From the NCBI GenBank assembly GCA_029263415.1, contig JAJCXN010000048.1, positions 75,169 to 139,168 on the forward strand: a stretch of 64,000 nt of DNA, given 5' to 3'. Of this stretch, positions 2,225 through 53,768 are shown one piece after another (the first letter of the stretch is position 1; each line of letters begins with the position of its first letter). A program made the translations under genes and the position numbers. This stretch comes from Acidobacteriota bacterium. GTDB lineage: Bacteria; Acidobacteriota; Thermoanaerobaculia; Multivoradales; Multivoraceae. The notes below the pieces were generated by a model. That model ran no database searches. It was not told the DNA's origin and saw only the letters and a program-made list of their open reading frames with translations.

Positions 2225-3184
2225 CTAGTCCACGACTAGCTCCACAGCACAGGCCGGGTCGATGACGTAGGCACTCGAATCACCAGAAGTTAGGCTGACC
2301 GTGTAAGACCCTGCGGCGGTATAGCTCCGGTTTCTGAGGTTGTGCCACCAGTAGCCATCAGCATCGAACCGAAACTGATTGCCGTGGGAGGCTCGGCCGG
2401 GCGCCAAGGCTTGGCTGGTCACATCGATAGGTTGGTCCCCTGAGCCGTCGTTGTAGGTCACCTGGAGGACTGGCCGGGCGACGAGGGTGGTGTCGGTCAA
2501 GTCCGTGCCGGAGTCATCCTGAAGGATGACTCTCAAAGGCAGGGATCGGCGGTGGCGCACAACAACCGGTCCGGTAGCTGCAGGCGGGCCGAATCCGTTG
2601 CAAGTGACCTGCGTTGGACGCTCGCCAGCAAAGCCAACGTTGTCTACGGTGAAACCGTCATTGCACTCAATCTCGACCAAGGCGATCTCTGCCGCAAAGA
2701 GCGCATGGAAGGCGACGCCGGTAAGACTGGTCTGCGTTTCGATCAAGGTGCCACTAGCATCGTAGGCGCGCACTTCAACCTGCTCAACCCCTTGACCTGC
2801 CCCATCTCCTGGCTGGCCTTGATGAACCTCGAAGCTGACCTCGTCCGGCAAGTAGGGCAACTCGAATTCCAGCGAGAGCACTCCGTTTCTGTTTGCCTGT
2901 GAAGGGTCGACGATGAAGGCACCGAAGCGATCGGCGCAATCGGTGGCGGAGCCGTTCGAAGTCACGCCCCTGCCGTCAGCAGGGGCGACGATGTCTCGAC
3001 AGTCGTTGGTCGGATTCCCCGGGCCTTGAGGGGAGCCGAAGATTTCGACTCCGTCAAAGCTACCGTTGTTGGGGCCGAGCGGGGCCGACTCAAAATCGAT
3101 CACCTTTTGAAACCGTTCGGCCGTTGCAATTGAGGTCTGTAGGACGACAATGAGAAGCATCGAGGCGGGTCTTGTTACAAGCAT
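2225..3184 (-). CDS. secreted hypothetical protein
   Basis: Track ORF 2225..3370. I chose the start at MLVTRPASMLLIVVLQTSIATA (a signal peptide) with AAGGA about 10 nt upstream. The N-terminal 62 codons of the track ORF lack a signal. No recognisable catalytic motif. Confidence 0.55.
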   Translation of the reverse strand: MLVTRPASMLLIVVLQTSIATAERFQKVIDFESAPLGPNNGSFDGVEIFGSPQGPGNPTNDCRDIVAPADGRGVTSNGSATDCADRFGAFIVDPSQANRNGVLSLEFELPYLPDEVSFEVHQGQPGDGAGQGVEQVEVRAYDASGTLIETQTSLTGVAFHALFAAEIALVEIECNDGFTVDNVGFAGERPTQVTCNGFGPPAATGPVVVRHRRSLPLRVILQDDSGTDLTDTTLVARPVLQVTYNDGSGDQPIDVTSQALAPGRASHGNQFRFDADGYWWHNLRNRSYTAAGSYTVSLTSGDSSAYVIDPACAVELVVD

Positions 3185-3483
3185 TGAACGTGCATCCTTC
3201 TTCTGTAGAAGAGTTGGCCAGAAATCAAGTTTTCGGGCGTGTTTGGCTTTGTCTCGCCCGCCTTCCAGCGGGGTCCGAGAGGAGACATTGACGAAGGCCT
3301 GTGCCTTGTCGAAGGGGTTGATAGCACTGGCCCGGGAGCCCTCGCAACGAGAATGGTGGGAGATGATCATCGCTGATCATTTCTGTACCTAGGGCCCGCT
3401 GTGACCCATGGGCGAACCTGGAATTTTCAATCCCGTCACGGCCGATTCTCTGGGCGTCGAGCAGGGGCTCCCTACTCACTCAA

Positions 3484-9383: not shown

Positions 9384-11111
9384 TTAGCTCTCGCCGGCAA
9401 GCCCAAGCTCCTTCATGCGACGATACAAAGTCGATCGACCGATCTCGAGCTCGCGAGCGACGGCGGACAGGTTGTTCTCGTTGCTGCGAATGGCAACTTC
9501 GATCTCGAAACGCTCCCAACGATCGACGCGTTGTTTGAGGCTGCCGTTAGCAGGCTCTCGCAGCACTGGGACCGCCTCTCGAATGGCGGGCTGCAAATGC
9601 GAACTTTGCAGCAGTTGATCGCGCTCAACGAACAGTGCCGCCCGCGCCATCTCCCGCTCCAACTGGCGGATATTGCCCGGCCATGCATAGTCCATCAATA
9701 CCTGCATCGCGGCTTTCGAGATGCCCAGCACGCGGTTGCCGGATTTGCTCGCCTCACGCTTTAGAAAGTAAGCAGCAAGGTTGGCGATGTCGGCGCGTCG
9801 CTCGCTCAGCGTCGGCAACTCAACCCGCCAGTCAGCGATGCGGTGGTACAAATCGCGACGAAATTGGTCGGCCGCAAGCAACGCGTCGAGGTCCTGATTG
9901 GTGGCTGCGACCACCCTCACCCGCGCTGGTTTCGGTTCCTGTCCGCCCAGGCGATACACCTCTCCATCTTGGAGGACCCGAAGAATCTTCGCTTGGGTAT
10001 CCAGAGCCATGTCGCCAATCTCGTCGAGGAACAAGGTGCCGCCATCCGCGAGTTCGAACTTGCCTGCACGCGGACTGACCCCGGTGGCAACGCCCTGTTC
10101 GATACCGAAGAGTTCGGACTCCAAGAGATCGCTCGGCAACGCCGCACAATTGAGGGCAACGAACGCTCGCGTGCTGCGCGGTGACGCCCGGTGAATGTAA
10201 CTGGCCAGCAGTTCCTTGCCGGTGCCCGAGCCACCAGTAATCATCACGCTGATTTCGCCTCTTGCCACCCGAGCAGCGTCTTCGTATATCTGCTGCACTC
10301 GAGGCACCACCGTTGCGGGCGAAGGCCCCTTCGGCGGCGCCGCTTCGTTTCGCTCCGCCAGTGGGACCTGTTGGCCGTCAACCAGCGCCATGAACCGACT
10401 GGCGGACTCGACCAGCGTCAGATTGCGCTTCGCCAAAGACGCCGCCAACAACTCCACTTCTACTCGCGCACTGGGCCCTTTGATCTCAACCGGGTAACCA
10501 GACGCTGGCGGGCCCAACTCGCGCTCTGCCTGGTACAAGAGACCGCCCAGCGCGCTCGAGATTCGAACGCTACGACACGGCAGGGTCTCGAACAGGCAGG
10601 CTCCGGCGACTTGGGCAGCTTCGGCCAAAGGAGCGCCGGTTTCCAAGCACGAGAGCCAGGACGGAAGGTGGTCTAGCGGAACCCGCTCCAGTGAACCAGT
10701 GAATGCCGTGGTCGGCGCGTACGCCGTCGCCCGCGACTCCTTTGCAGGTGGCTCAAACCTGACAGCCGGCACGGAGTCATCATCGCCCACCGCCTCGAGT
10801 CGCCCTTCGACGGTGCCGACGGTAACCGCCGCACCGACTTCGACCGTGGTCGGCGCGTCAATCCTCCTACCGCTCACCATGGTGCCGTTGCGCGACCCCA
10901 AGTCCTCTATCTCGACAGACCCAGCTATCTCGGGGGACTCAGCTATCTCGGGGGACTCAGCCAGAACTCGCACTAGCGCGTGACGTCTGGAAACGGTCGG
11001 GTCTGTGAGTAGCAGGTCGCTGGACGCTTCTGAGCCGAGCGTCGATTCCCCGACTTGCAAAGAGAAAGCCTGCAGCGTTCCGCCCGATTCGAACACCAGT
11101 CGAAAACTCAT
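9384..11111 (-). CDS. sigma-54-dependent Fis-family transcriptional activator with N-terminal FHA domain
   Basis: FHA-like N-terminus (FRLVFESGG…TLGS…LLTDPTVSRRHALV). AAA+ sigma-54 activator motifs GGSGTGKE (Walker A) and ESELFG. C-terminal Fis-type HTH (LSAVARELEIGRSTLYRRMKELGL). Start at ATG 11111 overlaps the kinase stop (ATGA). The track start at 11267 would add 52 aa with no similarity to anything. Confidence 0.85.
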   Translation of the reverse strand: MSFRLVFESGGTLQAFSLQVGESTLGSEASSDLLLTDPTVSRRHALVRVLAESPEIAESPEIAGSVEIEDLGSRNGTMVSGRRIDAPTTVEVGAAVTVGTVEGRLEAVGDDDSVPAVRFEPPAKESRATAYAPTTAFTGSLERVPLDHLPSWLSCLETGAPLAEAAQVAGACLFETLPCRSVRISSALGGLLYQAERELGPPASGYPVEIKGPSARVEVELLAASLAKRNLTLVESASRFMALVDGQQVPLAERNEAAPPKGPSPATVVPRVQQIYEDAARVARGEISVMITGGSGTGKELLASYIHRASPRSTRAFVALNCAALPSDLLESELFGIEQGVATGVSPRAGKFELADGGTLFLDEIGDMALDTQAKILRVLQDGEVYRLGGQEPKPARVRVVAATNQDLDALLAADQFRRDLYHRIADWRVELPTLSERRADIANLAAYFLKREASKSGNRVLGISKAAMQVLMDYAWPGNIRQLEREMARAALFVERDQLLQSSHLQPAIREAVPVLREPANGSLKQRVDRWERFEIEVAIRSNENNLSAVARELEIGRSTLYRRMKELGLAGES

Positions 11112-14100
11112 TGCCCATCCCTCGTGATCAAACTCAGATCCAAATGTGGTGACAATTCCTGCAATTGCGCCAGAGACGCCGCCCTTGCTGCGCCCCACTT
11201 GGCTCGGGCGCTCGCACTCGGCGACAATTCGGCAAGCAGACCTTCGAGCGCGACCCGCGCCGCCCATGCTGCCGTCAGCGTAGGCTCGCGCTCGAGGATG
11301 CTACCAACGGTGGCCTCGCCCACAGTGGCGGCGCGCAGAGCCTCCGCAGCATCGACTGTGGCCAAGTACTCGGCGCGCCGACGCAAAGTCCGTGCGAGCG
11401 CCTCGGCATAGTAGGAATAGAACTCATCGGTCCGGCTCGCGCGCGCCTTGGTCAACGCCACTTCGAACGACGCCTTCGCATCGCCTTGCAACCGTGCCAC
11501 CTCACGTGCGCTCAAGAGCGCCATGCGCGCCTCGAGCACGGGAAACTCCGCGGGGTAGGTCTCGCGTAGCGGAGGTAGAAGCTCGGCCGCCTTCCTCAGC
11601 AAGGAGCCCACTGGCTGCCCGCGGTCAAGCCGCGTCCTCGCCTGATCCAGTCGAGAACTTGTCAGATTGAGCTGAGTCGTTGTTCGGTGCGGCGCTTCTT
11701 CGAGAATCTGTTCGAAGCCAGCAGCGGCTTCAGCGAAGCGTGGCTCGGCGTCGCCACCGCTGTCCGCCTCCCACAATGCTCGACTCCAAAGCATTAACGC
11801 AAGGTTGCCTCGCGCACTTCGATCCGCAGGGTCCGCACTCAGCGCGCGGCGGCAAGCGCTCTCGCTCCAGTGGTAGTACTCGGTCGGATCACTGCCGCGC
11901 AGCGACAGGTGGTACCCCCAGTGACTGCCCACGTTGCAGAGTTCGGCGGCGAGCTCTACTTCAACCAAGCCCGCGTTCAAAAGCCCGGTGGCGAAGGCGC
12001 CCTGGGCGCGCTGCCAAGCAGGCACCGGGTCCTCTCCACGGAGGCTAAGGAAGAGTCCATAGCGAGTCAGCGTTTGCCCGAGCTTGAGGTGTGAGTACGG
12101 ATCGCCGGGTCGCAAGTCAACAGCTTCCTCAAGTGCCTTCAAGGACTCCGCATACTGGCGATCCGGAGGGTCCCCTTGATCGCCAAGAAAATTACCCCAC
12201 ACCCAATGCAGACTCCCCAGGTGACTAAGCAATCCCGCATCACGGCGGACTCGCAGTCCCTTTCGTGCCAAGCCTTCCGTTGCCCGCAAGGTTGCTATCG
12301 GATCATCGCCACGGCCAGCCAAGGCGTTGGCCATTCGCCAACCCGCTTCACCAATGAGTGAATAGGCCGGAAGGTAGTCAGGGTTGCTTTCGAGCGCTCG
12401 GCCGCAAGCCGCCTGCGCGCTCGCAAAGGCGTCATCAGGCGGCAGCGCTTGCGCCACTCTAACTTCCATCGCTCGGATGTGGCCTCGACACTCCTGACTG
12501 AGAGCAGCCGGATCGCTACGACCAGCACCCACCGCGATCGCTATCGCCTCCAGGCCCTTTGCCAATGCGATCTGCGCTCCGGCGATGTGTCCCTTCGAAA
12601 GCTCAACCACGACCTCCCGCAGCCGAGCTTCTGCACGCAGCATTTCACCCTCATAAAACAGCGGGTTCGCCGCCGTCGCCGAGCTGCCGCGTTCTGCCGC
12701 CTCGTCGAATCGACCCTCGATCAAGGCCAACAAACCCGCGATGAACTGGGCCTCGTACACCCGCAGTCCCTCGGCAGTTTCCCGCGCTCCCTCGAGAATG
12801 CGAACTGCCCGGTCGGCTGTGCTTAGGCGCGCCTCCGCGACCGCGCTGGTGCGCGAGTCCGCCGACTCAAGACCTTGGGCTCGCTCAATCTCCTGACGAA
12901 ACCGCTCGGCCAGGGTGCGGCCCAATGCCAACTGGACCCCAGGACCATTCGCAGTCGATGATGCGGCCCCCTCTAAGGCTACCTCTGCCTCTTGCCAGTG
13001 ACCCAGCGCCATGAATCCGCGGCCTCGCGCGTAGTCTGCCGCCCCCCGCAGTCGAGCCGACATCGCTTGGGCACGGGCCTCGAGCGCAGCGATCTCCTCG
13101 AGCACGCGCCGCTCCTCTCCTCGAACATCATGGCGCGGGGCAAGATGAGCAAGCCGCAACGACGCTTCGAGACGCTCCACCGTCTGGCCCACTTCCTGGG
13201 CGAACGCTGCTTCGCGCGTTGAGCGGTTCTGGTTCCACACCGACCAAAGACCGAAGCCAAGCGTCACCAGCAGAGCGCTCGCAACCGCAACCGCCGCCAC
13301 TGGATTGCGCTGTGCCCTCCGCCACCAGCGCCGTGCCGCGCTGAGCGGTCGCGCGGTGACCGGCCGGCCGTCGAGCCACCGCTCGAGATCTTCACTGAGG
13401 GCCTGAGCGGTGGCATATCGCCGCTGGGGGACTTTCTCCAAACACTGTTCGGTGATCGCTCGCAGATCCATGGGTAGGTCAGGCGCCACCCGCGAAAGGG
13501 TCGGCGGATCCTCCTGCAACACCTTCACCAGTGAGCCCAGTTGTGAATCTGAAGCGAACGGTTGAACGCCGGCCAGCAGCTCGTACAAGAGAATCCCTAA
13601 GCCGAACACGTCGCTACGTCGATCCAGTCGCCGCAGATCACCTGCCGCCTGCTCCGGCGACATGTACCCTGGCGTGCCCAGGGCTTGGCCAGTCACGGTA
13701 AGGCCACGCGCAGCCGCAACAGTCTCACCTTCTGAAGGCTGCAAGCCGCGAGCGATGCCGAAGTCCAAGACGAAAGGCACTAATGCGCCGTCGTCGTGCT
13801 GCTCCACTAAGATGTTCGACGGTTTAATGTCGCGGTGAATCAGCCCCACCTCATGCGCGGCGTGCAGCGCGTCCGCGATGGTGTGCATGACCTGCACCTT
13901 GAGCTTCAGAGACCGGCCCTCGAGCGCTTCGTCCAGCGGCTTGCCGTCGATCAGTTGCATGCTGATAAACGGCCGCTCGTCCTGGTAGCCGACCTGGTAC
14001 ACCTTGGCTACGTTGGGGTGTTCGACCTTCGCTTGAGCGCGGGCCTCGCGCAGGAAGCGCTCCACCGCCTGCCGGTCATCGGAAAGGAGGTACTTGAGCG

Positions 14101-14188
14101 CAACCTCTCTGCCCAGATCCTCATCGAATGCACGGAGGACACGGCCCATGGCGCCTTCGCCAAGAGGGACTGCGGTGCCTAGCCGCAT
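11108..14188 (-). CDS. Ser/Thr protein kinase with one TM helix and a long TPR-like C-terminal region
   Basis: Hanks kinase motifs: LGEGAMGRV (Gly loop), VALK, HRDIKPSNIL, DFGIA, GTPGYMSPE. TM segment VAAVAVASALLVTLGFGLWSVW. About 650 aa of Ala/Leu/Arg-rich helical repeats follow. Confidence 0.85.
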   Translation of the reverse strand: MRLGTAVPLGEGAMGRVLRAFDEDLGREVALKYLLSDDRQAVERFLREARAQAKVEHPNVAKVYQVGYQDERPFISMQLIDGKPLDEALEGRSLKLKVQVMHTIADALHAAHEVGLIHRDIKPSNILVEQHDDGALVPFVLDFGIARGLQPSEGETVAAARGLTVTGQALGTPGYMSPEQAAGDLRRLDRRSDVFGLGILLYELLAGVQPFASDSQLGSLVKVLQEDPPTLSRVAPDLPMDLRAITEQCLEKVPQRRYATAQALSEDLERWLDGRPVTARPLSAARRWWRRAQRNPVAAVAVASALLVTLGFGLWSVWNQNRSTREAAFAQEVGQTVERLEASLRLAHLAPRHDVRGEERRVLEEIAALEARAQAMSARLRGAADYARGRGFMALGHWQEAEVALEGAASSTANGPGVQLALGRTLAERFRQEIERAQGLESADSRTSAVAEARLSTADRAVRILEGARETAEGLRVYEAQFIAGLLALIEGRFDEAAERGSSATAANPLFYEGEMLRAEARLREVVVELSKGHIAGAQIALAKGLEAIAIAVGAGRSDPAALSQECRGHIRAMEVRVAQALPPDDAFASAQAACGRALESNPDYLPAYSLIGEAGWRMANALAGRGDDPIATLRATEGLARKGLRVRRDAGLLSHLGSLHWVWGNFLGDQGDPPDRQYAESLKALEEAVDLRPGDPYSHLKLGQTLTRYGLFLSLRGEDPVPAWQRAQGAFATGLLNAGLVEVELAAELCNVGSHWGYHLSLRGSDPTEYYHWSESACRRALSADPADRSARGNLALMLWSRALWEADSGGDAEPRFAEAAAGFEQILEEAPHRTTTQLNLTSSRLDQARTRLDRGQPVGSLLRKAAELLPPLRETYPAEFPVLEARMALLSAREVARLQGDAKASFEVALTKARASRTDEFYSYYAEALARTLRRRAEYLATVDAAEALRAATVGEATVGSILEREPTLTAAWAARVALEGLLAELSPSASARAKWGAARAASLAQLQELSPHLDLSLITRDGQ

Positions 14189-16806: not shown

Positions 16807-18033
16807 CTAGCCAGTAGGCTCGCCGTTTGGAGGTGAAGATGTGGTTTTTCCAGTCGGACCGCGCAGCCGCCGCTCAGACATTCTTTGAAAGTGTCTCCCG
16901 GCGTTGGGTTCCAGGGCGAGGCCCTGGTTGCCCCGCAGAGCAACTGGGGGTGATTCTGCAACCGGCAGTGTCCGCTCGAAGCGCTGGCCCATCGGCAGAT
17001 CGCACATTTCGTCATCGCAGGATTGCCAACGGATCTCACCAGAAATCGTCACCCCAGCGGTGTCAATCCGGGCTGCATTGTTGATCGTCAATGGCAGGCG
17101 CAGCTCGAACGAACCGTGATGAACTTGGAAGGACTCTCCGGTACCGGCAAGCGTATGAAGCTCGCTCGGCGGTCGCACCAGCGGGCGCTCTACGACGCTC
17201 TCATTCTCAGCGAGCACCACGTCCACCGCGATGGTCCCTTGTGGTGCAGGTTGCGCGTAAACGTGCCGGCCTGCAGGAACGCGGAATTGCACAACAAGAT
17301 CCCTCTGCACCGTAGCGGCGAGTGAGTCGCCGTCGAGGACGATGCTCACCTCTACCGCTTCGGGTGCTGCTGCGTCGACTCTTGCTTCAAGCATGGGCTC
17401 ACCTAGGACTGCACGTAGTAACTGCTCGGGACCCGGGCGGACGGCAAGGTTGTTTTCGAAGAACTTGTGGGTGATCGCGCCGTCCGCGCCAACCACGTAG
17501 CTGCCGGGGTAGGGAATGCCAAACCAGGGATGATCGTCCGGATCGATCAGCGTGTTTAGGATGCCGAACGATCGGATGACCGCTGAGTCTGGATCCGAGA
17601 GCAAGGGATAGCTGATGCCGTGCGCTTCGCCGAAGTCACTCAGCGCATCCGCCTCGTCATAGCTCAGCGCGTACAGCGCGACGCCCGCGGCATCGAAGTC
17701 CTTCAGCCCTTTTTGCAGCTCGACCAGCAGCGAACGGCAAGGAGGTCACCAGACCGCGGAACGGTAGAAGACAAACACCGCTGGTCTTCCTGCGCGATCG
17801 GCATGCAGATCGAAGGGCCTCGCGTCCGACGTGCTGCACTGCACGTCTGGCATGGGTTCGCCAACCTCGGGCCCAGTAGGGAAGGAACCCCGGGGATCGC
17901 TTCTCGGTCCGTTGCCAGGCTGAAAGGGCCCGATGAAGCCGTCGTGGTCCTGCCAGCCTCTGTCGGTCTGAATCGCGCGTGTCTCAAGCTCCAACTTCAC
18001 TACGTGTACTACCTCTCGTAATGGCGTGGTCAT
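16807..18033 (-). CDS. candidate selenoprotein: AhpC/TSA (Bcp/redoxin)-fold thiol peroxidase or oxidoreductase with a U-x-x-C motif, fused to a DsbD-alpha-like C-terminal domain; in-frame TGA at 17746..17748
   Basis: Track ORFs 17746..18033 and 16807..17604 share one frame (17746-16807=939). Exactly 47 sense codons and a single TGA lie between them. Read-through gives …DARPFDLHADRAGRPAVFVFYRSAVW-[TGA]-PPCRSLLVELQKGLKDFDAAGVALYALSYDEADALSDFGEAHGISYPLLSDPDSAVIRSFGIL…. The TGA replaces the first Cys of the W-C-x-x-C motif. The C-terminal 200 aa (…PAGRHVYAQP… CDDEMCDLP) resemble the DsbD N-terminal alpha domain. N-terminal start is uncertain (18033 ATG, or 17853 ATG at MPDVQCS). Confidence 0.6.
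17715..17731 (-). promoter_or_regulatory. bacterial SECIS-like hairpin 15 nt downstream of the in-frame UGA (mRNA 5'-GCUGCU-GGUCG-AGCUGC-3')
   Basis: Minus-strand RNA: a 6-position stem (G-C, C-G, U·U mismatch, G-C, C-G, U-A) closes a GGUCG loop. The loop GGUC falls at +24..+27 from the U of UGA; in E. coli fdhF, G23/U24 lie in GGUC at +22..+25. The U·U mismatch parallels the bulged U17 of fdhF. Confidence 0.4.
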
Positions 18034-27864: not shown

Positions 27865-29961
27865 TCACTCCAGGCCGTGATGCAAAATGACTCGCCGCGC
27901 CTCCTGCTCTCGACCTAGGGCTGCTAGCACTGCCACAAGTGGCCTGGCTCCTTCGTCGGCGTTCGGATCGAGACTGAGGGATTTTTCAAGAGCTTTTGCC
28001 GCGGCAGGATAGTCGCGCGTAGAGATGTGGCAGCGGCCAACTTGAAACCAAGCCCGGGCCAGGAACTCGTTGCTCGAAACAGCACGCTCGAAGTCCTTGC
28101 ATGCTTCGGCCGGTTGCCCCATCCAGCTCCTTAGTCTGCCTCGGTGGTTGTACAACCAAGCGAAGTCCCGAACAGCCACTTGAGACTCTTGCATCTCGAT
28201 AGCCTGGTTGATGACTGCGAGAGCATCGCCGGGGCGATTCTGCCTGGCGGCAACCATCGAGAGCCAGATCCTGGTTTGTTGTGCAGCGTTGAACTCTAGG
28301 GAGCCTAGGTCGGCGAGTAGGGTTTCTAGCAGCTCTTTGGTTTTCTCCAGATCGCCCCGCAGCAAATGAGCTTGGGCAAGCCGTAGTCTTGGTTCGCTGA
28401 GATCTGCGTTGGAGAACAGCTCGCTCGCGTCACTCAGCATTCGAGGCAGCTCTTTAGCGGGGTCCAAAAAGCCCATGCGGATGCTTCCAGAGGCTAGGGC
28501 TAGGCTGTCCGAGATAGCTTGTTGCGGACCAGCGGATGCAGTCAGCGGAGTTACGCTGACTGGAAACGTCGTGCGATCAGCTTGAGGTGCCAAACGCTCT
28601 TCTTCAGGCAGCGGCCGCGATTGAATCCGATGGTCCGTCATGACCACGTGCACCACATCCTGTGTGCGCCTCTTCGGCATGTGACAACTCACGCAGTCTT
28701 CGCGCTCGAAATGTTGAGCTCGATCCTCGCCTGCCAGGTTCAAGGGAGCTTGCGTCTTGCCGTCTTCGGTGTGGCACGCCAAGCACTGAGAACGAGTACG
28801 ACGGAGCGTCTCTATGCGCGCTGGTTTGTTGTGCGGGTCATGACAAGACGTACACTCCAGATCGCCTGGTTTGCTTTCAACAAAACAGGAGCTTTGCTCC
28901 AGCCGATACCCGTGATGGTTGATCTCGAACCGCTGTTGCTTGCCGTGCGCTTTGCCGTCACGGTCGCGTTCTTGCACCTCGAGTTTTAGCAAGAAGTCCT
29001 GGAGGTTCTGACCAGCTGTGAACTGATAGTCGCCCCGGTCCAGCCTTCGTTGCCCGAACACAGAGACGGATGGTTGGTGATGGCATTGGGCACAAACGTC
29101 TCGCCGCCGTTCCGCAGAGAGGTCCTTCGGATCAACGATGGTGCTGCGGACAGCGTCCCGCAGGCTGCGACGTTGCTCGGAAGTTAGCTTCGGGCCGGTG
29201 GACGAACCCTGCAGTGCCTTGGCTTCGAGCGCCTTGGCAACGTGACTTTGACCAGGACCGTGACAGCGCTGGCAGCCGATACCTTCTGGCATCTTCGCCG
29301 GGAATACTGGTGGCGCAAAGCGTTCATCCTGAAACGATGGATCCGTCGGAACGGCGTTGTGACAGAACATGCAGCCACGCTGAACGACACGCAAACCGGC
29401 CTCGTCGTTGCCACGCTCGCCTCCAGGTTTGGTGCCCCACGACGCCTCCTGGGTGTACCAGGCGAGAGGCAGCTCGAACAGCAATCCCTCGGCGCTTTGC
29501 AAGAAATACACCCGAGAAGCAGAGCCAGATCCCAGCACCCAATCTACGGGGCGCTGCCAGAGATGAATCGGTTCTCCGTCTGGGGCTGTCTGCCACTGAG
29601 AGAAAACGATCTTCTCGCCCTCGAGAGACAGGCGGTAGGTTAGGCGCCCATCTTTGATACCAGAAGAAGAAAAGTCTTCGATCCGCGAGGCGTTCTCTGG
29701 CCGGGCGAATGATCGAGCCATGCCGAGCGTTTGAAAGGACTCAGCGATCGAGGAATGGCATTCGGCACAAACCTCGTCAGCCACGAAACCGTGCCAGTTA
29801 TCTTCGCTCGCCGAGGCCTCGGCAGTGTAGGGGTTCGCGAAAGCCACGCTCCTCACTGGGAGCCGGTCGATGCCGCCGAAATCGCTTAGCTGAAACAGCA
29901 ACAAACACAAGATGGCCAGGCAGCAAGCGACTAGCAGCGGAAGTTTCGATGTCTTGGACAT
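27865..29961 (-). CDS. multihaem cytochrome c (7 CxxCH sites) with C-terminal TPR repeats, secreted
   Basis: Signal or anchor LPLLVACCLAILCLLLF. CxxCH motifs: CAECHS, CMFCHN, CQRCHG, CAQCHH, CTSCHD, CLACHT, CVSCHM. The last 200 aa are TPR-like. Confidence 0.8.
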   Translation of the reverse strand: MSKTSKLPLLVACCLAILCLLLFQLSDFGGIDRLPVRSVAFANPYTAEASASEDNWHGFVADEVCAECHSSIAESFQTLGMARSFARPENASRIEDFSSSGIKDGRLTYRLSLEGEKIVFSQWQTAPDGEPIHLWQRPVDWVLGSGSASRVYFLQSAEGLLFELPLAWYTQEASWGTKPGGERGNDEAGLRVVQRGCMFCHNAVPTDPSFQDERFAPPVFPAKMPEGIGCQRCHGPGQSHVAKALEAKALQGSSTGPKLTSEQRRSLRDAVRSTIVDPKDLSAERRRDVCAQCHHQPSVSVFGQRRLDRGDYQFTAGQNLQDFLLKLEVQERDRDGKAHGKQQRFEINHHGYRLEQSSCFVESKPGDLECTSCHDPHNKPARIETLRRTRSQCLACHTEDGKTQAPLNLAGEDRAQHFEREDCVSCHMPKRRTQDVVHVVMTDHRIQSRPLPEEERLAPQADRTTFPVSVTPLTASAGPQQAISDSLALASGSIRMGFLDPAKELPRMLSDASELFSNADLSEPRLRLAQAHLLRGDLEKTKELLETLLADLGSLEFNAAQQTRIWLSMVAARQNRPGDALAVINQAIEMQESQVAVRDFAWLYNHRGRLRSWMGQPAEACKDFERAVSSNEFLARAWFQVGRCHISTRDYPAAAKALEKSLSLDPNADEGARPLVAVLAALGREQEARRVILHHGLE

Positions 29962-42661: not shown

Positions 42662-45424
42662 TCACTCGGCCCGCAAGTTCTCTGCCGGGTCGGTGAGTGC
42701 GGCTCGACGTGCGGGTAAGAGAGTCGCCGTCATGGACGCGAGCGCAAGCGCCCCTACGCCGATGGCCAAGGCCTCAGGACTCATGGACTCGACTCCAAAC
42801 AGGTAGGCGCTGAGTAGACGAGTGGTGACCCAGGAGCCAAGGAGTCCTAGAACCAGTCCGGCGCCGGTCAGAAGGGCGCCGCGTGACGCCACCAATGTCA
42901 TGACGCCACGAGTGTGTGCGCCGAGAGCGATACGGATGCCGATCTCCTTGCGACGTCGACTGACGAGGTGGGACAGAGTGCCGTACAGGCCGAGCACGGC
43001 GAGGATGGTTGCGACCAAGGAGAAGGACACGAGTAGGGTCGTTCGAAACAGCGGTTCTGCGCGAGTCCGCTGAATGCGTGAATTGAGTGGTGCTAGATCG
43101 GCGGCCGGAGCGATGGGGCTGATGGTGGCCGCTGCCTCACGCACTGCATCGGTTGTGGCCGTTGAGAGCGAGAGGCCTTGGGTCGCCATGCCCATGCCCG
43201 CCCCGTCTTCGTCGCGCCGGAAGGTGATCCAAGCGCGCGGCCAATCTTCCTGAGTGTACGGACGGTAGATCGCCGGCTGGTAGCCGTCTTCTACGCGGTT
43301 GTGCACCACATTACCGAGCACACCGACAATCTCGACAGTGTCGAGTCGGTCATCGTCTCGGCTTAGCCGCAAGCGTTCGCCAACAACGTCGATGTTGCCG
43401 AAATGCTGGGTTGCAAACGTCTCGTTGACCAGCGCGACCTGGGCCGAGCCGGAGCTGTCTGCAGCGCTGAGTCCACGACCTCTGAGTAGTGGAATGCGCG
43501 CTACTTCTGGAAAGTTGGGCGTGATTACGTAGCCGGCAGTGCCTGTTGTCATTTCTTCGAATGACTGCCCCTCGAGCAGAATGGCCGGTGCCCAGTTGGG
43601 ATCCTGAAACGGGAGGTTGGAGCTGGCGGCGACCTGTGTGACTCCAGCCGCTGGGACTGACCCGACCGCCTCGAGCATGGCGTCCCAGCGTCGCCACAGA
43701 TTGCCGACGTCTTGTGGTCCACTCTTGAGAGGCGCTGAAAAGGTCCAGAGCCCTTTCGGTTCGAAGCCAGGGTCGAAGCTGGCGACGTTGAGGAACGACA
43801 CCATCAGGAGGCTGGCACCAACGAGCAACATCACTGCGATCGCGAGCTGGCAGACAACAAGTCCGCTGCGCAGCTGCGACGGGGCCGCCACAGCTTGTGC
43901 CCGGCTCCGCAGCCCTTCGAGGGAGAGGCCCGTTCCGAGTCCCCATGAAGCGAGCACTCCTACCAATAGACCAAGAAGGCTCGACATCAGCAGCGCGAGA
44001 CTCACCACCCGAACATCGAGGGCAACCTCGGCAAGACGCGGCATGCTTTGCGGGCTCAGCCGAACGAAGGCACCGACGCCTAGCCGAGCGAGGCCAACGC
44101 CGATCAGGCCGCCGCATAGGGCTAGGGTCACAGACTCTGTGATCAACAGTAGGCTGAGCCGAGCCCGACCCGCGCCAAGGGCTTGCCGAACCTCGAACTC
44201 CCGGCGACGAGCGAGAGCTCGCACCAACATCAGGTTGGTTGAGTTGAGTAGAGCGACTAGCATCAGCAATCCGGCGGCACCGAAGAACAGGCCGAGCAGA
44301 CGCGCTGCTCCGCCGATGGTTTGGGCTTTCAGGCCGTTGACGCCGACGCCGAAGGCTCGGCCATCGTGGATAACGTTTCCGTCGGGAAACTCTTCTGCGA
44401 GTTCTACGGCGAGTACGTCCATCTCTTCGCGCGCGGTCTCGAGAGTGGCGTGGGGCGCTAGGCGCCCGAGTACGAAGAGCGAACGCATGCCTCGGTTGAG
44501 GTAACGAGGGCTGCCCTCTTTGAGCGGCCACCAGATGTCTGGAGTTTCGTTGCGGATGGCCTCGGGGAGCTTGAAGTCAGGCGCCAACACACCGACGACC
44601 ACTTCCGCCGCCCCGGCCTGACCGGGCTCACCGAGGATCGATGAGTCAGCGCCGTAGCGGTCCCGCCAAATTGAGTAGCTGAGCAGTCGCACCGGAGGGG
44701 CGTTCGCCTCGAAGTCTTCCGCTAGGAATGAGCGGCCAAGATGCATCTTGACGCTCAAGAGTTCTAAGAACCCAGCCGTCACGCTGGCGGCTGAACCGAT
44801 CTCCAAACCGCGGCCAACGTCGGGCAGGAGGGCGCCGCGAGATTCGAGAGCGGCAAGGTGGTCGAAGGACGTGGCTCTTTCTCGCCAGTCGGCGAAGTTC
44901 CGTACAGAGACCCCTGCCAAGCGTCGTAGCCCGGCGGCATCCTTGCGCCAAGGTTGATCCGGAAAAGTGGTACCCAGAGCCATCAGCCGGTCGGCCGCGG
45001 CATAGGGAAGGGGGCGCAGCAGGACGGTGTCGACGACACTAAAAATGGTGGTGGTTGCTCCGATACCTAGACCGAGGGTGAGCAGAACGGCCGACTTGAA
45101 GCCGCGGCGTCGGAAGAGAATGCGTAGGCCTGAGTGGACGTCTTCGAGTGCGTTGTACATAGCGGATTCCCGTGGTTTGATGGGAGCAGCCGCGCGGCCT
45201 CGCGCTGCTCGTGTGGCCGGCCGCCACCAGTAGATCGTGGTGGAGAGGGTGTCGCGGAGGTGGGCTAATGAGGCTCGCAAGGTAGCGTTGGTGGACCTGT
45301 CGATGCTTTCGTCGAGATCACCTCTTAGGCTCTCAGCGCCTTTGCTCTCGCCCAGAGTCCGAGCTAGCCATTGGCAAAGGCGTAAAATCAGTCGCGCTAG
45401 ATACTGTGTGAACCCAGTGTTCAT
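42662..45424 (-). CDS. ADOP-family duplicated permease (FtsX-like, MacB-type, two permease modules)
   Basis: 920 aa with two FtsX-type 4-TM modules and large periplasmic domains. N-terminal ADOP-type region. The start ATG overlaps the PadR stop (ATGA at 45421-45424). Confidence 0.85.
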   Translation of the reverse strand: MNTGFTQYLARLILRLCQWLARTLGESKGAESLRGDLDESIDRSTNATLRASLAHLRDTLSTTIYWWRPATRAARGRAAAPIKPRESAMYNALEDVHSGLRILFRRRGFKSAVLLTLGLGIGATTTIFSVVDTVLLRPLPYAAADRLMALGTTFPDQPWRKDAAGLRRLAGVSVRNFADWRERATSFDHLAALESRGALLPDVGRGLEIGSAASVTAGFLELLSVKMHLGRSFLAEDFEANAPPVRLLSYSIWRDRYGADSSILGEPGQAGAAEVVVGVLAPDFKLPEAIRNETPDIWWPLKEGSPRYLNRGMRSLFVLGRLAPHATLETAREEMDVLAVELAEEFPDGNVIHDGRAFGVGVNGLKAQTIGGAARLLGLFFGAAGLLMLVALLNSTNLMLVRALARRREFEVRQALGAGRARLSLLLITESVTLALCGGLIGVGLARLGVGAFVRLSPQSMPRLAEVALDVRVVSLALLMSSLLGLLVGVLASWGLGTGLSLEGLRSRAQAVAAPSQLRSGLVVCQLAIAVMLLVGASLLMVSFLNVASFDPGFEPKGLWTFSAPLKSGPQDVGNLWRRWDAMLEAVGSVPAAGVTQVAASSNLPFQDPNWAPAILLEGQSFEEMTTGTAGYVITPNFPEVARIPLLRGRGLSAADSSGSAQVALVNETFATQHFGNIDVVGERLRLSRDDDRLDTVEIVGVLGNVVHNRVEDGYQPAIYRPYTQEDWPRAWITFRRDEDGAGMGMATQGLSLSTATTDAVREAAATISPIAPAADLAPLNSRIQRTRAEPLFRTTLLVSFSLVATILAVLGLYGTLSHLVSRRRKEIGIRIALGAHTRGVMTLVASRGALLTGAGLVLGLLGSWVTTRLLSAYLFGVESMSPEALAIGVGALALASMTATLLPARRAALTDPAENLRAE

Positions 45425-48426: not shown

Positions 48427-49020
48427 ATGTCGATCACCTCACACCCCTCTATCTCTCGGCTCCTCAGCGCATGGGGTGCTAGTCACCCCTCTGCTCTCAA
48501 CCAACTGCTCGGTCGAGTCCAGAGCCATCTACGCAAACAGGCAAGGGTCCTTCTCGCACGCGAACGCCAGGGCCATACCCTGCAGCCCACCGCGCTCGTC
48601 AATGAAGCGTTCCTACGCCTGTTTCGACAGCGCAATGTTAGGTGGAACGACCGTGAACATTTCTTCGCCGTTGTCGCCATGACCATGCGGCGTGTATTGG
48701 TCGATGCGGCCCGTCGACGGACGGCAGTCCGAAGGGGAGCAAGACCGCTCAAGATCTCGCTCAGCGACGTCGAGCCCGCACACGAGACCGATCTCGAAGT
48801 CCTAGACCTGAATCGCGCGCTCGAAGATCTCGCTGAACTGCACGAGCGTCAGGCTCAAATTGTGACCCTCCGCTACTTCGGGGGCTTGGCAGCTCCGGCT
48901 GTGGCTGAAGCTCTCGACATCTCGGTTTCGACGGTGGAATCGGACTGGCGGATGGCTCGTGCGTGGCTACGGCATCGTTTGACCAACCAGTCCGCCGAGA
49001 AACTGGAACCAAGGCCTTGA
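48427..49020 (+). CDS. ECF (group IV) sigma-70 family sigma factor of the Ser/Thr-kinase-associated type
   Basis: N-terminus SRLLSAWGASHPSALNQLL…ERQGHTLQPTALVNEAFLRL is typical of kinase-partnered ECF sigmas. Region 4 HTH …IVTLRYFGGLAAPAVAEALDISVSTVESDW. Confidence 0.8.
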   Translation: MSITSHPSISRLLSAWGASHPSALNQLLGRVQSHLRKQARVLLARERQGHTLQPTALVNEAFLRLFRQRNVRWNDREHFFAVVAMTMRRVLVDAARRRTAVRRGARPLKISLSDVEPAHETDLEVLDLNRALEDLAELHERQAQIVTLRYFGGLAAPAVAEALDISVSTVESDWRMARAWLRHRLTNQSAEKLEPRP

Positions 49021-51887
49021 GCTCCGAGCGGCATCGCCGATTAACTGAACTCTTTGCTGCTGTCGCTGATGCGCCGTCCGCTGAACGGCACCATATCCTT
49101 CAGTCAATTGAACATGACAAGAGTCTGATTGCCGATTGTCTAGAGCTGCTCGCGGCGGACGATGCGTCACCGGGAGACTTCTTGGCCCCTGGCAGCTTGA
49201 GGTTCGAGGAGTCCACCAGCGACGTGTCTGAACCGCCATTCCAAATTGGAGACCAGCTCGATAACTATCGAATCGTTGAACTGCTGGGGCGTGGTGGCAT
49301 GGGCTGCGTGTACCGCGCAGAAGACCCCTCGCTGCGCCGAGACGTCGCCATCAAAACGTTGGCCAAGGCTAGTGCCGACGAACGGCAACACAGTCGATTC
49401 CTGGAAGAGGGCCGGAGTCTCGCTGCGCTTGATCACCCGAACGTGGTCACGGTGCACGCGGTTGGCGAGGCTCCAACCACCGGCGGCTCGACGGCGCCAT
49501 ACCTAGTCATGGAGTTAGTACACGGCCAACGTCTCGACCAAGTTGCTGGTACCGATGGGCTAAGTCTCCAGAAGTTCTGCAACGTGGCCCGAGATCTTCT
49601 CAGCGGGGTGGCGGCCGCTCATCGTTGCGGGATTGTGCACCGCGATCTCAAGCCATCCAACGTCATGATCACGGAGTTGGGCCAGACCAAGGTGCTCGAT
49701 TTCGGTTTGGCACGAACAGAATCGCCTCGGCCAAGCCGCTCGTACGCCGACGAAGCCACCAAAGACGGCGCGCTGATCGGAACCATTCCGTTCATGTCAC
49801 CGGAACAAGTCTCTGGCCAGCCCGCAGATCGACGCTCGGACGTCTTTTCACTGGGCAGTGTTCTCTACTTCGCAGCAACGGGGCGATCCCCTTTTGCGGG
49901 CTCAGACGATCTTGCGACGCTGAGCAACATCCTGACTAAAGACCCACCCGCTTTGAGGACCATCCGGCCCGACCTATCGCGGAGTCTCGAATCGCTCATC
50001 GAACGAGCTCTTTCGAAGGCTCCGGAGGAGCGCTACTCGAGCGCCGACGACATGAGATCGGCACTGGATCAACTGGCATCAAGAGCCAACCGCCCTTGGA
50101 AGCGAGGCTGGGTTCAAGCAGCTGCAGCAGCAATGCTGTTTGGCGTGCTCGGCTTGACTTGGATTTTCGCTACAGCTGCCGACGACTCGCCGCTCACAGC
50201 CATCGAAGGGCGCGCCAATCTCAACATGCAGCCTCTGACCACCAGCGGCACGGTGATCTCAGCGGCCCTCTCGCCCGACGGTCAGCGATTTAGTTATGTG
50301 GAGTCTGTCGACGGGCTCCAGGGCCTCTACGTCCGCAACGTAGCCGGTGGTCCCAGCCTCGAACTAGTCCCTCCCCGTCCCATCGCATTTTGGGGTCATT
50401 CCTTCTCGAGTGACGGCACACAGGTCTTCTACGGGCTACGAGGTGATCCTGATCGACCAGGGGGAGCGTACTTCCAGATCTCAACCCTTGGCGGTTCGCC
50501 GCAACACCTCGTTGATGGCATTGACAGCACGCCTGCAGTCTCACCGGACGGCTCACAAATAGCTTGGTACCGACTTCACCCGGACGGCGAAGATGAGTTG
50601 CTGATTGCGGATCTCGCCAGCGGCGAAGAGCGGCGCGTCGCGAGCCCACAGGGGCCCTATCGCTATGGCCCTACCTTCTTTGGTGGTGTGGCATTTTCGC
50701 CCAACGGAAAGCGCATCGCAGTTGCAGAGATCCACCCCGCAGGCGAGCCCGGTCGCATTGCGCTGATCGATATTGCCACTGGAACTGAACGCTGGAGCGT
50801 CACTGACCCCCGATGGACGATGATGGGACAGGTGGCTTGGGCGCCGGATCATCAGGCACTGCTGGTGGTGGCTGGCGGCAAAGCAACCTCAAAGGACATC
50901 TGGCGAATCCCGCTGTGGAGCGGCGATCCGGTTCGGCTCACAGTTGATCTCAACAGCTACCGAACCGTCAGTCTCTCTCGCAACGGAGACCGCCTGGTCA
51001 CCGTACCTTCACGACTCGAGTCTGGTCTATGGAGCGGCGAATGGCCTCCACGCGGCGAAGCAGAACGGGTGACGCGCGAGCGCCCCGGTGCCTATGCGGG
51101 GATCGACTACAGCTCAGACGGTGCCTTGGTCTTCACCCAGGGTGGAAGCCTTCAGCTAGTCAAGAAGAACCAACAGCGTCCCACCTTCGTCATCGACGAG
51201 CCTGGCACCATCTCAACGCCTCACATCACTGAGCAAGGCTCCGCCCTCTACGCAAAATCGCGCACTGCCGGCAATGCTCCGATCATTCGCGAGGTTGACC
51301 TGCAAACCCGCATCGCTCGTGACGTTGTACAACTTCCGCAAGATGCCTACCCGCTTCGTTTGTCGTATACGCAGAACGCGGTCTATTCCTCGAACACGGC
51401 GGGCAATCGCATGTATAGGACTCCGCTAGACGGCGGTCCCACGACCCAACTCGGTGAGTCCGGCTACCTACCATTCGTTTCCCCGGATGGTGACCAGTTG
51501 GCTTACTACCAATTCGTCTCAACGGCAACAGTGGGGCCAAGCCGGATCGTGGTGCGCTCGCTGACCAACAGTGGAGGCATCGATGACGCGGTCCCACCCA
51601 TTCTGATCGAGCATCTCGCTGCCACGTTTCCCCGCTCCTTTCTTCGCTGGACTCCAAATGGTGATGCCCTGCTAGTCAACACCGCGGCGGGCGACCGGGC
51701 CAACCTCTGGCGCTTACCGCTCGACGGAAACGCAGCCGAACGGCTGACGGATTTCACCGAACAAGACCTGCTCGCGGCGGACTTCTCTCCGGACGAATCT
51801 CGTTGGACCTTCTTGAGAGGTGGCAGCCTGCGCGACGCAGTCTTGATTGAAGGAGCCCTCGGACCACCAAGCGAACCTTCCCAGTAG
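48963..51887 (+). CDS. Ser/Thr protein kinase with C-terminal TolB/PD40-like β-propeller
   Basis: Kinase motifs LGRGGMGCVY, VAIK, HRDLKPSNVM, DFGLA, GTIPFMSPE. TM helix AAAAMLFGVLGLTWIFA. Six or more PD40-like repeats. Start is either ATG 48963 (57-nt overlap with the sigma gene) or TTG 49016 overlapping the sigma stop. Confidence 0.85.
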   Translation: MATASFDQPVRRETGTKALSSERHRRLTELFAAVADAPSAERHHILQSIEHDKSLIADCLELLAADDASPGDFLAPGSLRFEESTSDVSEPPFQIGDQLDNYRIVELLGRGGMGCVYRAEDPSLRRDVAIKTLAKASADERQHSRFLEEGRSLAALDHPNVVTVHAVGEAPTTGGSTAPYLVMELVHGQRLDQVAGTDGLSLQKFCNVARDLLSGVAAAHRCGIVHRDLKPSNVMITELGQTKVLDFGLARTESPRPSRSYADEATKDGALIGTIPFMSPEQVSGQPADRRSDVFSLGSVLYFAATGRSPFAGSDDLATLSNILTKDPPALRTIRPDLSRSLESLIERALSKAPEERYSSADDMRSALDQLASRANRPWKRGWVQAAAAAMLFGVLGLTWIFATAADDSPLTAIEGRANLNMQPLTTSGTVISAALSPDGQRFSYVESVDGLQGLYVRNVAGGPSLELVPPRPIAFWGHSFSSDGTQVFYGLRGDPDRPGGAYFQISTLGGSPQHLVDGIDSTPAVSPDGSQIAWYRLHPDGEDELLIADLASGEERRVASPQGPYRYGPTFFGGVAFSPNGKRIAVAEIHPAGEPGRIALIDIATGTERWSVTDPRWTMMGQVAWAPDHQALLVVAGGKATSKDIWRIPLWSGDPVRLTVDLNSYRTVSLSRNGDRLVTVPSRLESGLWSGEWPPRGEAERVTRERPGAYAGIDYSSDGALVFTQGGSLQLVKKNQQRPTFVIDEPGTISTPHITEQGSALYAKSRTAGNAPIIREVDLQTRIARDVVQLPQDAYPLRLSYTQNAVYSSNTAGNRMYRTPLDGGPTTQLGESGYLPFVSPDGDQLAYYQFVSTATVGPSRIVVRSLTNSGGIDDAVPPILIEHLAATFPRSFLRWTPNGDALLVNTAAGDRANLWRLPLDGNAAERLTDFTEQDLLAADFSPDESRWTFLRGGSLRDAVLIEGALGPPSEPSQ

Positions 51888-52695: not shown

Positions 52696-53196
52696 TCAGC
52701 CAGACTTTCTGAGCACCACGTTCGCTTGTGACGCGGCCTCAACGAACTTCATCGGATCCAGATGAAAGTCAGCGTACACGACCACCCCTTCGGGATCGAT
52801 CACGGTGAACCAAGGAGTCCCGGAGGTGCGATAGTCGCCCATCAGTGTTGAATAGGTCTCACCTGCTTGCCGAACATCGTGGCCAAACGGAATTTCGAGA
52901 CCGTACTTGTCCTGGTTCAAACGAAGCTTGTCGACCGTGTTGATCTCGGCACCTTCGAACACTGTTTGCACCGCGGCAAATCCGAATCCCCGATCAGGCA
53001 GTTCTTCTACCAAGCGTTTCAGCGTTGGGAAGCCGCTGGAATGACAACCCGGACACCAGTGTTGAAAGCAGTAGAGGATCTTGAAGCCATCCCCAAGATC
53101 AGCCAACACCAATGGCTCGACCTCGTTGCCAGTTCCGTCAATCCAGTGAGTCACGCGTAGCTCCGGTGCCTCTTTGTGCAGCAAACCCATCTGCAT
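52696..53196 (-). CDS. thioredoxin-fold thiol:disulfide oxidoreductase (TlpA/redoxin-like), third gene of the msrB-msrA operon
   Basis: WCPGC active site in YCFQHWCPGCHSSGF. Start ATG overlaps the msrA stop (TGATG). The track ORF extends to 53307 across the msrA 3' end. Confidence 0.75.
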   Translation of the reverse strand: MQMGLLHKEAPELRVTHWIDGTGNEVEPLVLADLGDGFKILYCFQHWCPGCHSSGFPTLKRLVEELPDRGFGFAAVQTVFEGAEINTVDKLRLNQDKYGLEIPFGHDVRQAGETYSTLMGDYRTSGTPWFTVIDPEGVVVYADFHLDPMKFVEAASQANVVLRKSG

Positions 53197-53768
53197 CAGG
53201 ATCTCCCCTTCGAACCAAAGCCCGTACCTTGTGATCCAGCTGGGCTCTGCAGAGCGCTGCTTGCATCGAGCGTAGGCAGCACCCAATCGGGCCTCGGAAA
53301 GTGACACGTATAGCCATCCGGATACCGCTGCAAGTAGTCCTGGTGTTCAGGCTCGGCTTCCCAGAAATCGCCGACCGGCTCCACCTCAGTGATCACCTCG
53401 CCTGGCCAGAGACCAGAGGCCTCCACCTCGAGAATGGTCCGCTCCGCAATCTCTCGTTGCTCATCGGTGACGGTGTATATCCCCGAACGATACGAAGACC
53501 CTCGATCATTGCCTTGTTGGTCGATCGTCGTCGGATCATGGATTTGAAAGAAGAGTTCCAGGAGATTTCGATAAGAAGTCTCTTCCGAATCGAAGAGGAT
53601 CTCGATCCCTTCGGCGTGAGACCCGTGATCGCGGTAGGTAGCGTTCGGCACGTCGCCACCGGTGTAACCGACTCGGGTCTCAATGACCCCGGGAAGCTCT
53701 CGAATCAGATCCTGCATTCCCCAGAAACATCCGCCCGCCAGAACTGCGCGTTCGGTGGTCATGCTCAA
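53196..53768 (-). CDS. msrA: peptide-methionine (S)-S-oxide reductase MsrA
   Basis: GCFWG active-site motif in [11 protein letters not shown]. Conserved YHQ-like region ([11 protein letters not shown]…HAEGI). Start overlaps the msrB stop (ATGA). Confidence 0.9.

Follow-up and report, generated by a model that had tools for sequence, protein, structure and literature searches.

The window examined here is a stretch of 64,000 nucleotides of contig JAJCXN010000048.1, from an Acidobacteriota bacterium, and on its minus strand lies a gene with an in-frame UGA codon and, shortly after it, a 17-nt RNA hairpin. To judge from the comparison of sequences, the hairpin is very probably the upper stem-loop of a bacterial selenocysteine insertion sequence (SECIS) within the gene for a Prx-like selenoprotein, in which a fold carrying the motif UxxC (U being selenocysteine, Sec) is combined with a DsbD_N-like domain. 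The coordinates of the gene, of its domains and of the parts of the hairpin are collected in Table 1, where, as throughout, positions in the RNA are counted from the U of the UGA as +1.

Table 1. Features of the predicted selenoprotein gene and of its predicted SECIS, in coordinates of the window.
Feature	Position	Strand	Evidence
Full selenoprotein frame read through the UGA, 409 codons	16807..18033	minus	Translation; N-terminal conservation with orthologue fragments
In-frame UGA, predicted selenocysteine codon, the U of UxxC (U-P-P-C)	17746..17748	minus	Same codon TGA in 68/68 orthologous loci
AhpC/TSA (Redoxin) thioredoxin-fold domain with UxxC	17467..17853	minus	PF00578 E=3.3e-23 (82.4 bits, cut-off 26); PF08534 E=6.4e-14
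DsbD_N-like domain with two invariant cysteines (WQxCDDxxCDxP)	16975..17310	minus	PF11412 E=1.1e-7 (32.3 bits, cut-off 25)
Predicted upper SECIS hairpin, +18..+34	17715..17731	minus	Fold, covariation counts, RNAalifold consensus
Parts of the hairpin: 5' arm; loop; 3' arm	17731..17726; 17725..17721; 17720..17715	minus	
Loop dinucleotide G25-U26, putative SelB contact, counterpart of fdhF G23/U24	17723..17724	minus	Invariant in 67/67 distinct sequences
U20 of the U·U mismatch, window-specific A to U (Gln to Leu); partner U32 at 17717	17729..17729	minus	A-U in 66 sequences, U·U in 1
Lower helix of the window fold, +6..+16 (17743..17733) with +38..+50 (17711..17699), enclosing the upper hairpin	17699..17743	minus	Not conserved in register

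There are two candidates for the start of the gene, an ATG at 18033 and a GTG at 18000, the second of which aligns with the Met start of the orthologues, and the frame ends with a TAG at 16809..16807; past the UGA, it remains intact for 312 codons. Public annotation has only a 265-aa piece, 16807..17604 (P0001), which begins from a TTG at 17604. The two cysteines of the DsbD_N-like domain, C279 and C284, are invariant in an alignment of 18 sequences (A1). At the other end of the protein there is a conserved N-terminal extension of around 50–60 residues (17854..18033, minus strand), which has the motif ETRxxxxDxGWRDHDGFxGPxQPGxGPRSDPxGxFPTGPxVG and for which no Pfam family match was found. Inspected by eye only, this extension is not hydrophobic and contains no obvious signal sequence; DsbD_N domains are normally periplasmic.

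The UGA stands in the context FYRSAVW-U-PPC, and its U aligns with the first Cys of the WCPPCRS motif in the solved thioredoxin-fold protein 3OR5, which places it at the nucleophilic position of CxxC, a classic Sec/Cys site; the other close matches among solved structures are ResA-type oxidoreductases. The protein shares its fold family with the TlpA/ResA-type thiol:disulfide oxidoreductases (3OR5; ResA, 1ST9), with W-C-P-P-C-R-S identical in 3OR5, and differs from them in its predicted Sec in place of Cys, in the additional 50 or so conserved residues at its N-terminus, and in its fusion to a DsbD_N-like domain. It also resembles the SelL-related redox protein of NF040769 in its UxxC/CxxC Prx-like fold. 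No NCBIfam model covers the family, and membership in NF040769 (SelL_rel_redox), which is the top match, is ruled out by a score of 36.9 bits against a cut-off of 120.

Among the 548 relatives retrieved by a protein search, almost all of the best 120 have a length of about 284 aa, and each of the 17 that were aligned begins at a Met matching query residue 50, just past the hairpin. A search with the N-terminal 74 residues, in which Cys replaced Sec, found 14 short fragments of around 83 aa (one of 63 aa), nearly all of which end at the Trp before the UGA. Downstream pieces that start after the hairpin and N-terminal pieces that end before the UGA show that gene callers split the whole family at the in-frame stop. 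The same N-terminal search found no full-length Cys form to serve as a negative control. The split is confirmed by the DNA of 68 orthologous loci in species-representative genomes, where the TGA is found at the identical codon in every one, in the context RS[AV]VW-TGA-PPCR[STAV]QLV[EQ]L[QE], with coding conservation on both flanks. The carriers are Pseudomonadales, including 'Azotimanducaceae', and Acidimicrobiia/Microthrix, along with single metagenome-assembled genomes (MAGs) that are Thermoanaerobaculia, Limisphaerales, Gemmatimonadota, alphaproteobacterial and deltaproteobacterial. A tblastn search of these 68 loci with seven neighbouring proteins of the window revealed no shared synteny.

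On the minus strand, the region reads ...GUC UGG UGA CCU CCU UGC CGU UCG CUG CUG GUC GAG CUG CAA.... After a gap of 14 nt, the UGA is followed by the 17-mer GCTGCTGGTCGAGCTGC (GCUGCU-GGUCG-AGCUGC, minus strand 17731..17715), the stem of which is made by G18-C34, C19-G33, the mismatch U20·U32, G21-C31, C22-G30, and U23-A29, and the loop by G24, G25, U26, C27, and G28, so that GGUC occupies +24..+27. An earlier reading of the window, made from the sequence only, had proposed this hairpin downstream of the UGA at 17748..17746, and its coordinates and pairs, like its placing of GGUC, agree exactly with the minus-strand sequence. That reading had also asked for a fold of minus-strand 17690..17750: the minimum-free-energy (MFE) structure of this segment does contain the hairpin. 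It is also present in the MFE fold of most other contexts (+1..+50, +1..+55, +1..+60, +1..+75, -12..+75, and -30..+90), and the +1..+60 fold that includes it has an energy of -17.4 kcal/mol. No Rfam match was obtained at gathering thresholds across the whole window; around the site, relaxing the limit to E up to 10 brought only snoRNA noise, with no SECIS model matched.

The evidence that carries the SECIS interpretation comes from a gap-free RNA alignment (A2) that covers 87 nt, -12..+75, in 69 sequences including that of the window, 67 of them distinct. The six stem pairs are formed in 99.5% of the sequence-by-pair cells, as compared with 0–38% in registers slid by 1–3 nt, and compensatory changes are found in two of the six. 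One of these is pair 18-34, which is G-C in 50 sequences and C-G in 16, with a C·C in L027; the C-G form couples the replacement of Gln by Glu at +34 with a synonymous change of G to C at +18. The other is pair 21-31, which is G-C in 48 sequences, A-U in 12, and G-U in 7 but never A·C, and for which a neighbour-joining tree based on around 200 downstream residues requires 11 or more changes of state. The remaining pairs are invariant, and the only unpaired cells in the whole stem are the C·C of L027 at 18-34 and the U·U of the window at 20-32. The spacer of 14 nt is the same in all 69 sequences, with zero indels, and RNAalifold, unprompted, recovers the identical hairpin.

The sequence-only reading had called for a test of covariation among orthologues, and had named a stem that is not conserved where the TGA is kept as an outcome that would speak against it. 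The stem is kept alongside the TGA, and the claim survives. More generally, its proposal that the hairpin is a SECIS that recodes the UGA is supported by the constancy of the TGA, the pairing and compensatory changes of the stem, the invariance of the loop GU, the freezing of synonymous sites within the stem (see below), and the consensus structure from RNAalifold.

G25-U26, which is also the opening dinucleotide of a conserved Val codon, is invariant in all of the distinct sequences. The bases on either side of it, +24 and +27 (17725 and 17722 in the window; A2 columns 36 and 39), each fall at a synonymous third position. In 61 of the 67 sequences the two are complementary (GC in 42, CG in 17, AU in 1, and GU in 1), and they have changed state at least 15 times on the tree. 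A Watson–Crick pair between them would leave a loop of 2 nt, and in the sequences that have both C24 and G28, the predicted fold has a seventh pair and a GUG triloop. The +24/+27 geometry may correspond to a flipped-out GU bound by SelB or, in the C24/G28 variants, to a triloop on a stem of 7 bp.

A second, smaller hairpin in the RNAalifold output (A2 columns 4-27, about 17757..17734 on the minus strand of the window) encloses the UGA in its loop, with the GG of the Trp codon facing the CC of the second Pro codon. It is made of invariant positions and G-U variation only; no pair has changed on both sides, and nothing supports it as a real structure.

The 40-nt SECIS of Escherichia coli fdhF offers a direct comparison. 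Its upper hairpin comprises 17 nt (nt 15-31) at a distance of 11 nt from the UGA, with a bulged U17 and the loop bases G23/U24 (PMC8659212). The fdhF sequence TGACACGGCCCATCGGTTGCAGGTCTGCACC... is present at 100% identity in the fdhF of 5419 of 5426 E. coli genomes, with GGUC at +22..+25, and U17 is the third base of the 17-nt hairpin, so that the description of fdhF given in the sequence-only reading (GGUC at +22..+25, U17, G23/U24) holds against both the gene and the review. As in fdhF, the hairpin described here is part of the coding sequence and follows closely 3' of the UGA; it is a 17-nt upper stem-loop of six pairs with a GGUC loop that exposes a G and a U; the GU is flanked by complementary bases (G22/C25 in fdhF and +24/+27 here); and a variable lower helix extends back towards the UGA. 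Even the stability of the isolated hairpin is similar, at -4.2 kcal/mol in fdhF and -4.3 kcal/mol in the window. The differences are that it starts 14 nt rather than 11 nt after the UGA, that the GU is at +25/+26 rather than +23/+24, that the loop has an extra unpaired base (+28) on its 3' side, and that the family lacks a bulged U in the 5' arm, since its +20 is an A paired with a U. The term "fdhF-like" is therefore apt for the exposed GU in a GGUC loop and inexact for the spacing, given the longer spacer and a GU displaced 2 nt downstream.

The hairpin agrees in every listed constraint with the general model of the bacterial SECIS used by bSECISearch. The model allows loops of 3-9 nt on upper stems of 4-16 bp and a UGA-to-loop distance of 16-37 nt, expects a G at loop position 1 or 2, with G or U usually next, and sets the MFE at -7.5 kcal/mol or less (PMC13188914). 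The hairpin of the window, at +18..+34 after an in-frame UGA in a frame of 409 codons, has a 5-nt loop and six stem positions (five pairs and the U·U in the window, and six pairs in the orthologues), with G25-U26 at loop positions 2-3 and a UGA-to-loop distance of 20 nt (+4..+23). The energy of -17.4 kcal/mol that is below the limit belongs to the +1..+60 fold, the isolated 17-mer having just -4.3 kcal/mol, and the structure is conserved, with compensatory changes, in the orthologues that keep the UGA. In comparison with the consensus bacterial SECIS, nothing structural differs, apart from the one internal mismatch in the window copy that the orthologues lack.

Several observations weigh against the SECIS interpretation. 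In the window copy, an alternative fold beats the hairpin by 2.9 kcal/mol in the context +1..+45 and by 1.2 kcal/mol in -100..+150. The 61-nt fold has a z-score of -0.16 relative to dinucleotide shuffles, 85 of 200 of which fold at least as well, and in this window of 60% G+C, 255 of the 1832 TGA triplets (13.9%) are followed by an equally good hairpin, defined as one with a stem of six positions that tolerates a single internal mismatch at most, GU among the first bases of a 4-6 nt loop, and a permitted distance from the TGA. Judged from one sequence, the hairpin does not rise above chance. Because of its U·U mismatch, the isolated hairpin of the window (-4.3 kcal/mol) is also less stable than any other of the 69, for which the median is -8.8 kcal/mol. 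In the alignment, the GC/CG swap at 18-34 is a single event in one clade, and the conserved peptide QLVELQ accounts for part of the sequence conservation. Finally, no selA, selB, selD, or tRNA-Sec was found in the 64-kb window (Pfam on 40 of 48 selected open reading frames, or ORFs; ARAGORN).

A better alternative fold had been named in the sequence-only reading as evidence that would count against it. The hairpin gave way in the two contexts above and kept its place in the MFE of most others, and the SECIS claim survives. Given the z-score and the frequency of equivalent hairpins, single-sequence thermodynamics were rejected as evidence either way and, with the single-sequence signal at the level of chance, the case rests on the comparison of orthologues.

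One explanation that dispenses with selenocysteine is that the UGA is read through by near-cognate decoding as Trp or Cys, aided by the hairpin, or that it is reassigned in a variant code. Downstream structures can stimulate stop-codon read-through in general, and this explanation would also accord with a window in which Sec machinery is not seen. It is nonetheless very improbable. The codon occupies the nucleophilic Cys position of a CxxC redox motif, the hairpin fits the SECIS model down to the invariant GU of its loop, and members of the family have already been classed as selenoproteins. Moreover, a scan of the window for read-through TGAs gave 130 raw candidates, almost all of them noise, and inspection of these showed that only the site at 17748..17746 has a clean redox motif in a real gene, which argues against a reassigned code.

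Another explanation is that the hairpin sequence is conserved only through the peptide that it encodes, with no selection on RNA structure. Q-L-V-E-L-Q is indeed almost invariant, and G25-U26 is constrained as part of a Val codon. The third positions of codons, however, behave differently inside and outside the stem. The paired third positions +30 (Glu, GAG in 56/56) and +33 (Leu, NUG in 65/65) have zero entropy, whereas the four-fold sites +6, +9, and +15, and others further off, have 1.7-1.9 bits, +24 and +27 in the loop also vary freely, and another Glu codon is divided between 33 GAG and 31 GAA. This freezing of synonymous sites in the stem implies selection on the RNA helix and not only on the peptide. 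The Leu at 22-24, the C22 of which pairs with G30, is always CUN; A21 only ever occurs with U31; and the Gln to Glu change at +34 is matched in 16 sequences by the silent change at +18. Conservation through the peptide without selection on RNA structure is consequently extremely unlikely.

That the TGA is a true stop, in a pseudogene or split gene, and the hairpin a chance G+C-rich fold is barely credible and already largely refuted, since the chance-level z-score and the abundance of equivalent hairpins in the window, the annotation of the downstream part as a separate gene, and the mismatch in the window hairpin have to be set against a TGA kept in all 68 loci with protein-level conservation on both flanks and 312 intact codons downstream, against a stem that covaries and has frozen synonymous sites, and against the fact that a stop would separate the catalytic UxxC from the rest of the fold.

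The window copy of the predicted SECIS carries two private changes. At +20, an A that pairs with U32 is found in 66 of the 67 distinct sequences, and only the window has a U there, CAG (Gln) having become CUG (Leu). The sequence-only reading had likened the U·U mismatch to the bulged U17 of fdhF, an analogy that fails because the change is private to the window and is not a bulge. An independent Logan assembly of SRR15505518 (L069) is identical to the window over 4,853 bp, so U20 is not an artefact of one assembly. The second private change is a CUG at +43, where most of the others have AUG, and the lower helix of the window, which has 10 bp (+6..+16 with +38..+50), partly relies on it.

This extended lower stem was rejected as a conserved feature because, in its register, only 43.6% of the cells are paired across the orthologues, similar to slid controls, and it is retained as lineage-specific. 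The window ranks 8th of 69 in stabilisation beyond the isolated hairpin, and the lower helix brings its total energy (-17.4 kcal/mol) to about the median of the family (-16.4 kcal/mol). A possible interpretation is that the lower helix compensates for the weak, mismatched upper hairpin.

The working of the predicted SECIS can be pictured as follows. When the UGA at 17748..17746 enters the ribosomal A site, the lower helix would already be melted, and the 6-bp upper hairpin, which starts 14 nt downstream, would then be at the mRNA entrance. A SelB·GTP·Sec-tRNA(Sec) complex would bind the apical loop via the exposed G25-U26, selenocysteine would be delivered in place of termination, and translation would run on for 312 more codons. 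That SelB binds the hairpin, that Sec is inserted in the source organism, and that selA, selB, selC, and selD are present in its genome are inferences. As regards the orthologues, no tRNA-Sec was found beside the 60 loci scanned with ARAGORN, which gave one tRNA-Ser only; this result, like the negative scans of the window, is uninformative.

The protein belongs to a kind that has been described before. 'Prx-like' selenoproteins, which have distant Prx homology and a thioredoxin-like UxxC, were represented by 22 sequences from the Sargasso Sea in 2005 (PMC1088965), and the GOS survey of 2008 listed a 'Prx-like 1' group with pfam00578, UxxC, and 225 sequences (PMC2398784). Dataset S1 of that survey contains ...LVFTRSAVWUPPCRTQLVELEKGM..., which is near-identical to the Acidimicrobiia orthologues across the active site and the hairpin region, as well as nine further occurrences of AVWUPPC. 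At least two AVWUPPC reads fall inside the '#Prx-like 1' block; the near-identical SAVWUPPCRTQLVELEKGM read is near the start of '#Prx-like 2' and probably belongs to the '#Prx-like 1' block.

Like the Prx-like UxxC selenoproteins, the protein of the window has AhpC/TSA homology and UxxC instead of the TxxU of true Sec-peroxiredoxins. Its C-terminal DsbD_N-like domain is not named in these papers, 'DsbD' occurring 0 times in the main text of the GOS survey, and the fusion that they describe (Prx-like 3/Unknown_3) has CxxC, whereas the DsbD_N-like domain here has CxxxxC. Since its motifs match those in GOS Dataset S1, the family was already catalogued, and the gene is, to judge from its sequence, a member of the 'Prx-like 1' selenoprotein group in which a mechanism already known is at work in an ordinary form. 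For the understanding of selenocysteine insertion as such, it brings nothing new.

Some of the orthologues have peculiarities of their own. In certain genomes the selenoprotein gene occurs twice, and both copies have the TGA and the hairpin: L007/L008 (OY761542.1), L012/L026 (PBRP01), and L057/L058 (PBMG01), the last two being identical over the 87-nt region. L042, from an Acidimicrobiaceae MAG, and L044, from a Gemmatimonadota MAG, are 1 nt apart over the same region, which suggests a binning error or a very recent transfer; given such near-identity across assigned phyla, the apparent breadth of the family among phyla should be read cautiously. In L068 (about 3001..3240), the TGA and hairpin are kept and the frame ends around 30 codons later (...VFALSGTASPFLAPT*), which may be due to a frameshift, a pseudogene, or an assembly error. 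P0121, the N-terminal fragment of 63 aa, comes from a contig of 436 bp in which the start of a downstream fragment (MKDFDAAGVAVYALSYDE...) is joined directly to an N-terminal fragment (...LPDVRCS...FYRSSVW), probably through an assembly that is chimeric or merges tandem copies.

Elsewhere in the window, a second ORF of the AhpC/TSA family and an ORF for methionine sulfoxide reductase A (PMSR) lie at 52696..53307 and 53196..53768, both on the minus strand; they overlap by about 110 nt in a small redox cluster, and neither has an in-frame TGA. The genes at 9384..14188, 27865..29961, 42662..45424, and 48963..51887 include those for two large Ser/Thr kinases, an FHA-sigma54 activator, a TPR-multihaem cytochrome, and a duplicated MacB/FtsX permease, a set that would suit Acidobacteriota or Myxococcota.

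A more speculative idea, and a doubtful one, is that this SECIS is unusually rigid, that its near-invariant sequence (GCAGCU-S-GU-S-G-AGCUGC) serves the same gene across several phyla, and that it is portable between very different SelB proteins. If this were so, the covariation of +24/+27 around the invariant GU would point to a closing pair from which a flipped-out GU is displayed to SelB, and the window copy would be a natural mutant whose lower helix, stronger than average, makes up for the U·U mismatch.

In practice, the finding is of use for annotation. Hundreds of orthologue entries, among them the proteins P0001-P0134, are split into two pieces at the UGA. The N-terminal piece, when it is called at all, is labelled 'hypothetical protein' and has around 83 aa. 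The alignment of the orthologues provides a clean bacterial SECIS supported by covariation which, in view of the lack of an Rfam SECIS match at this site, could seed a model. Because of the split entries, a selenoprotein widespread in marine and other environmental samples is systematically mis-called in public databases.

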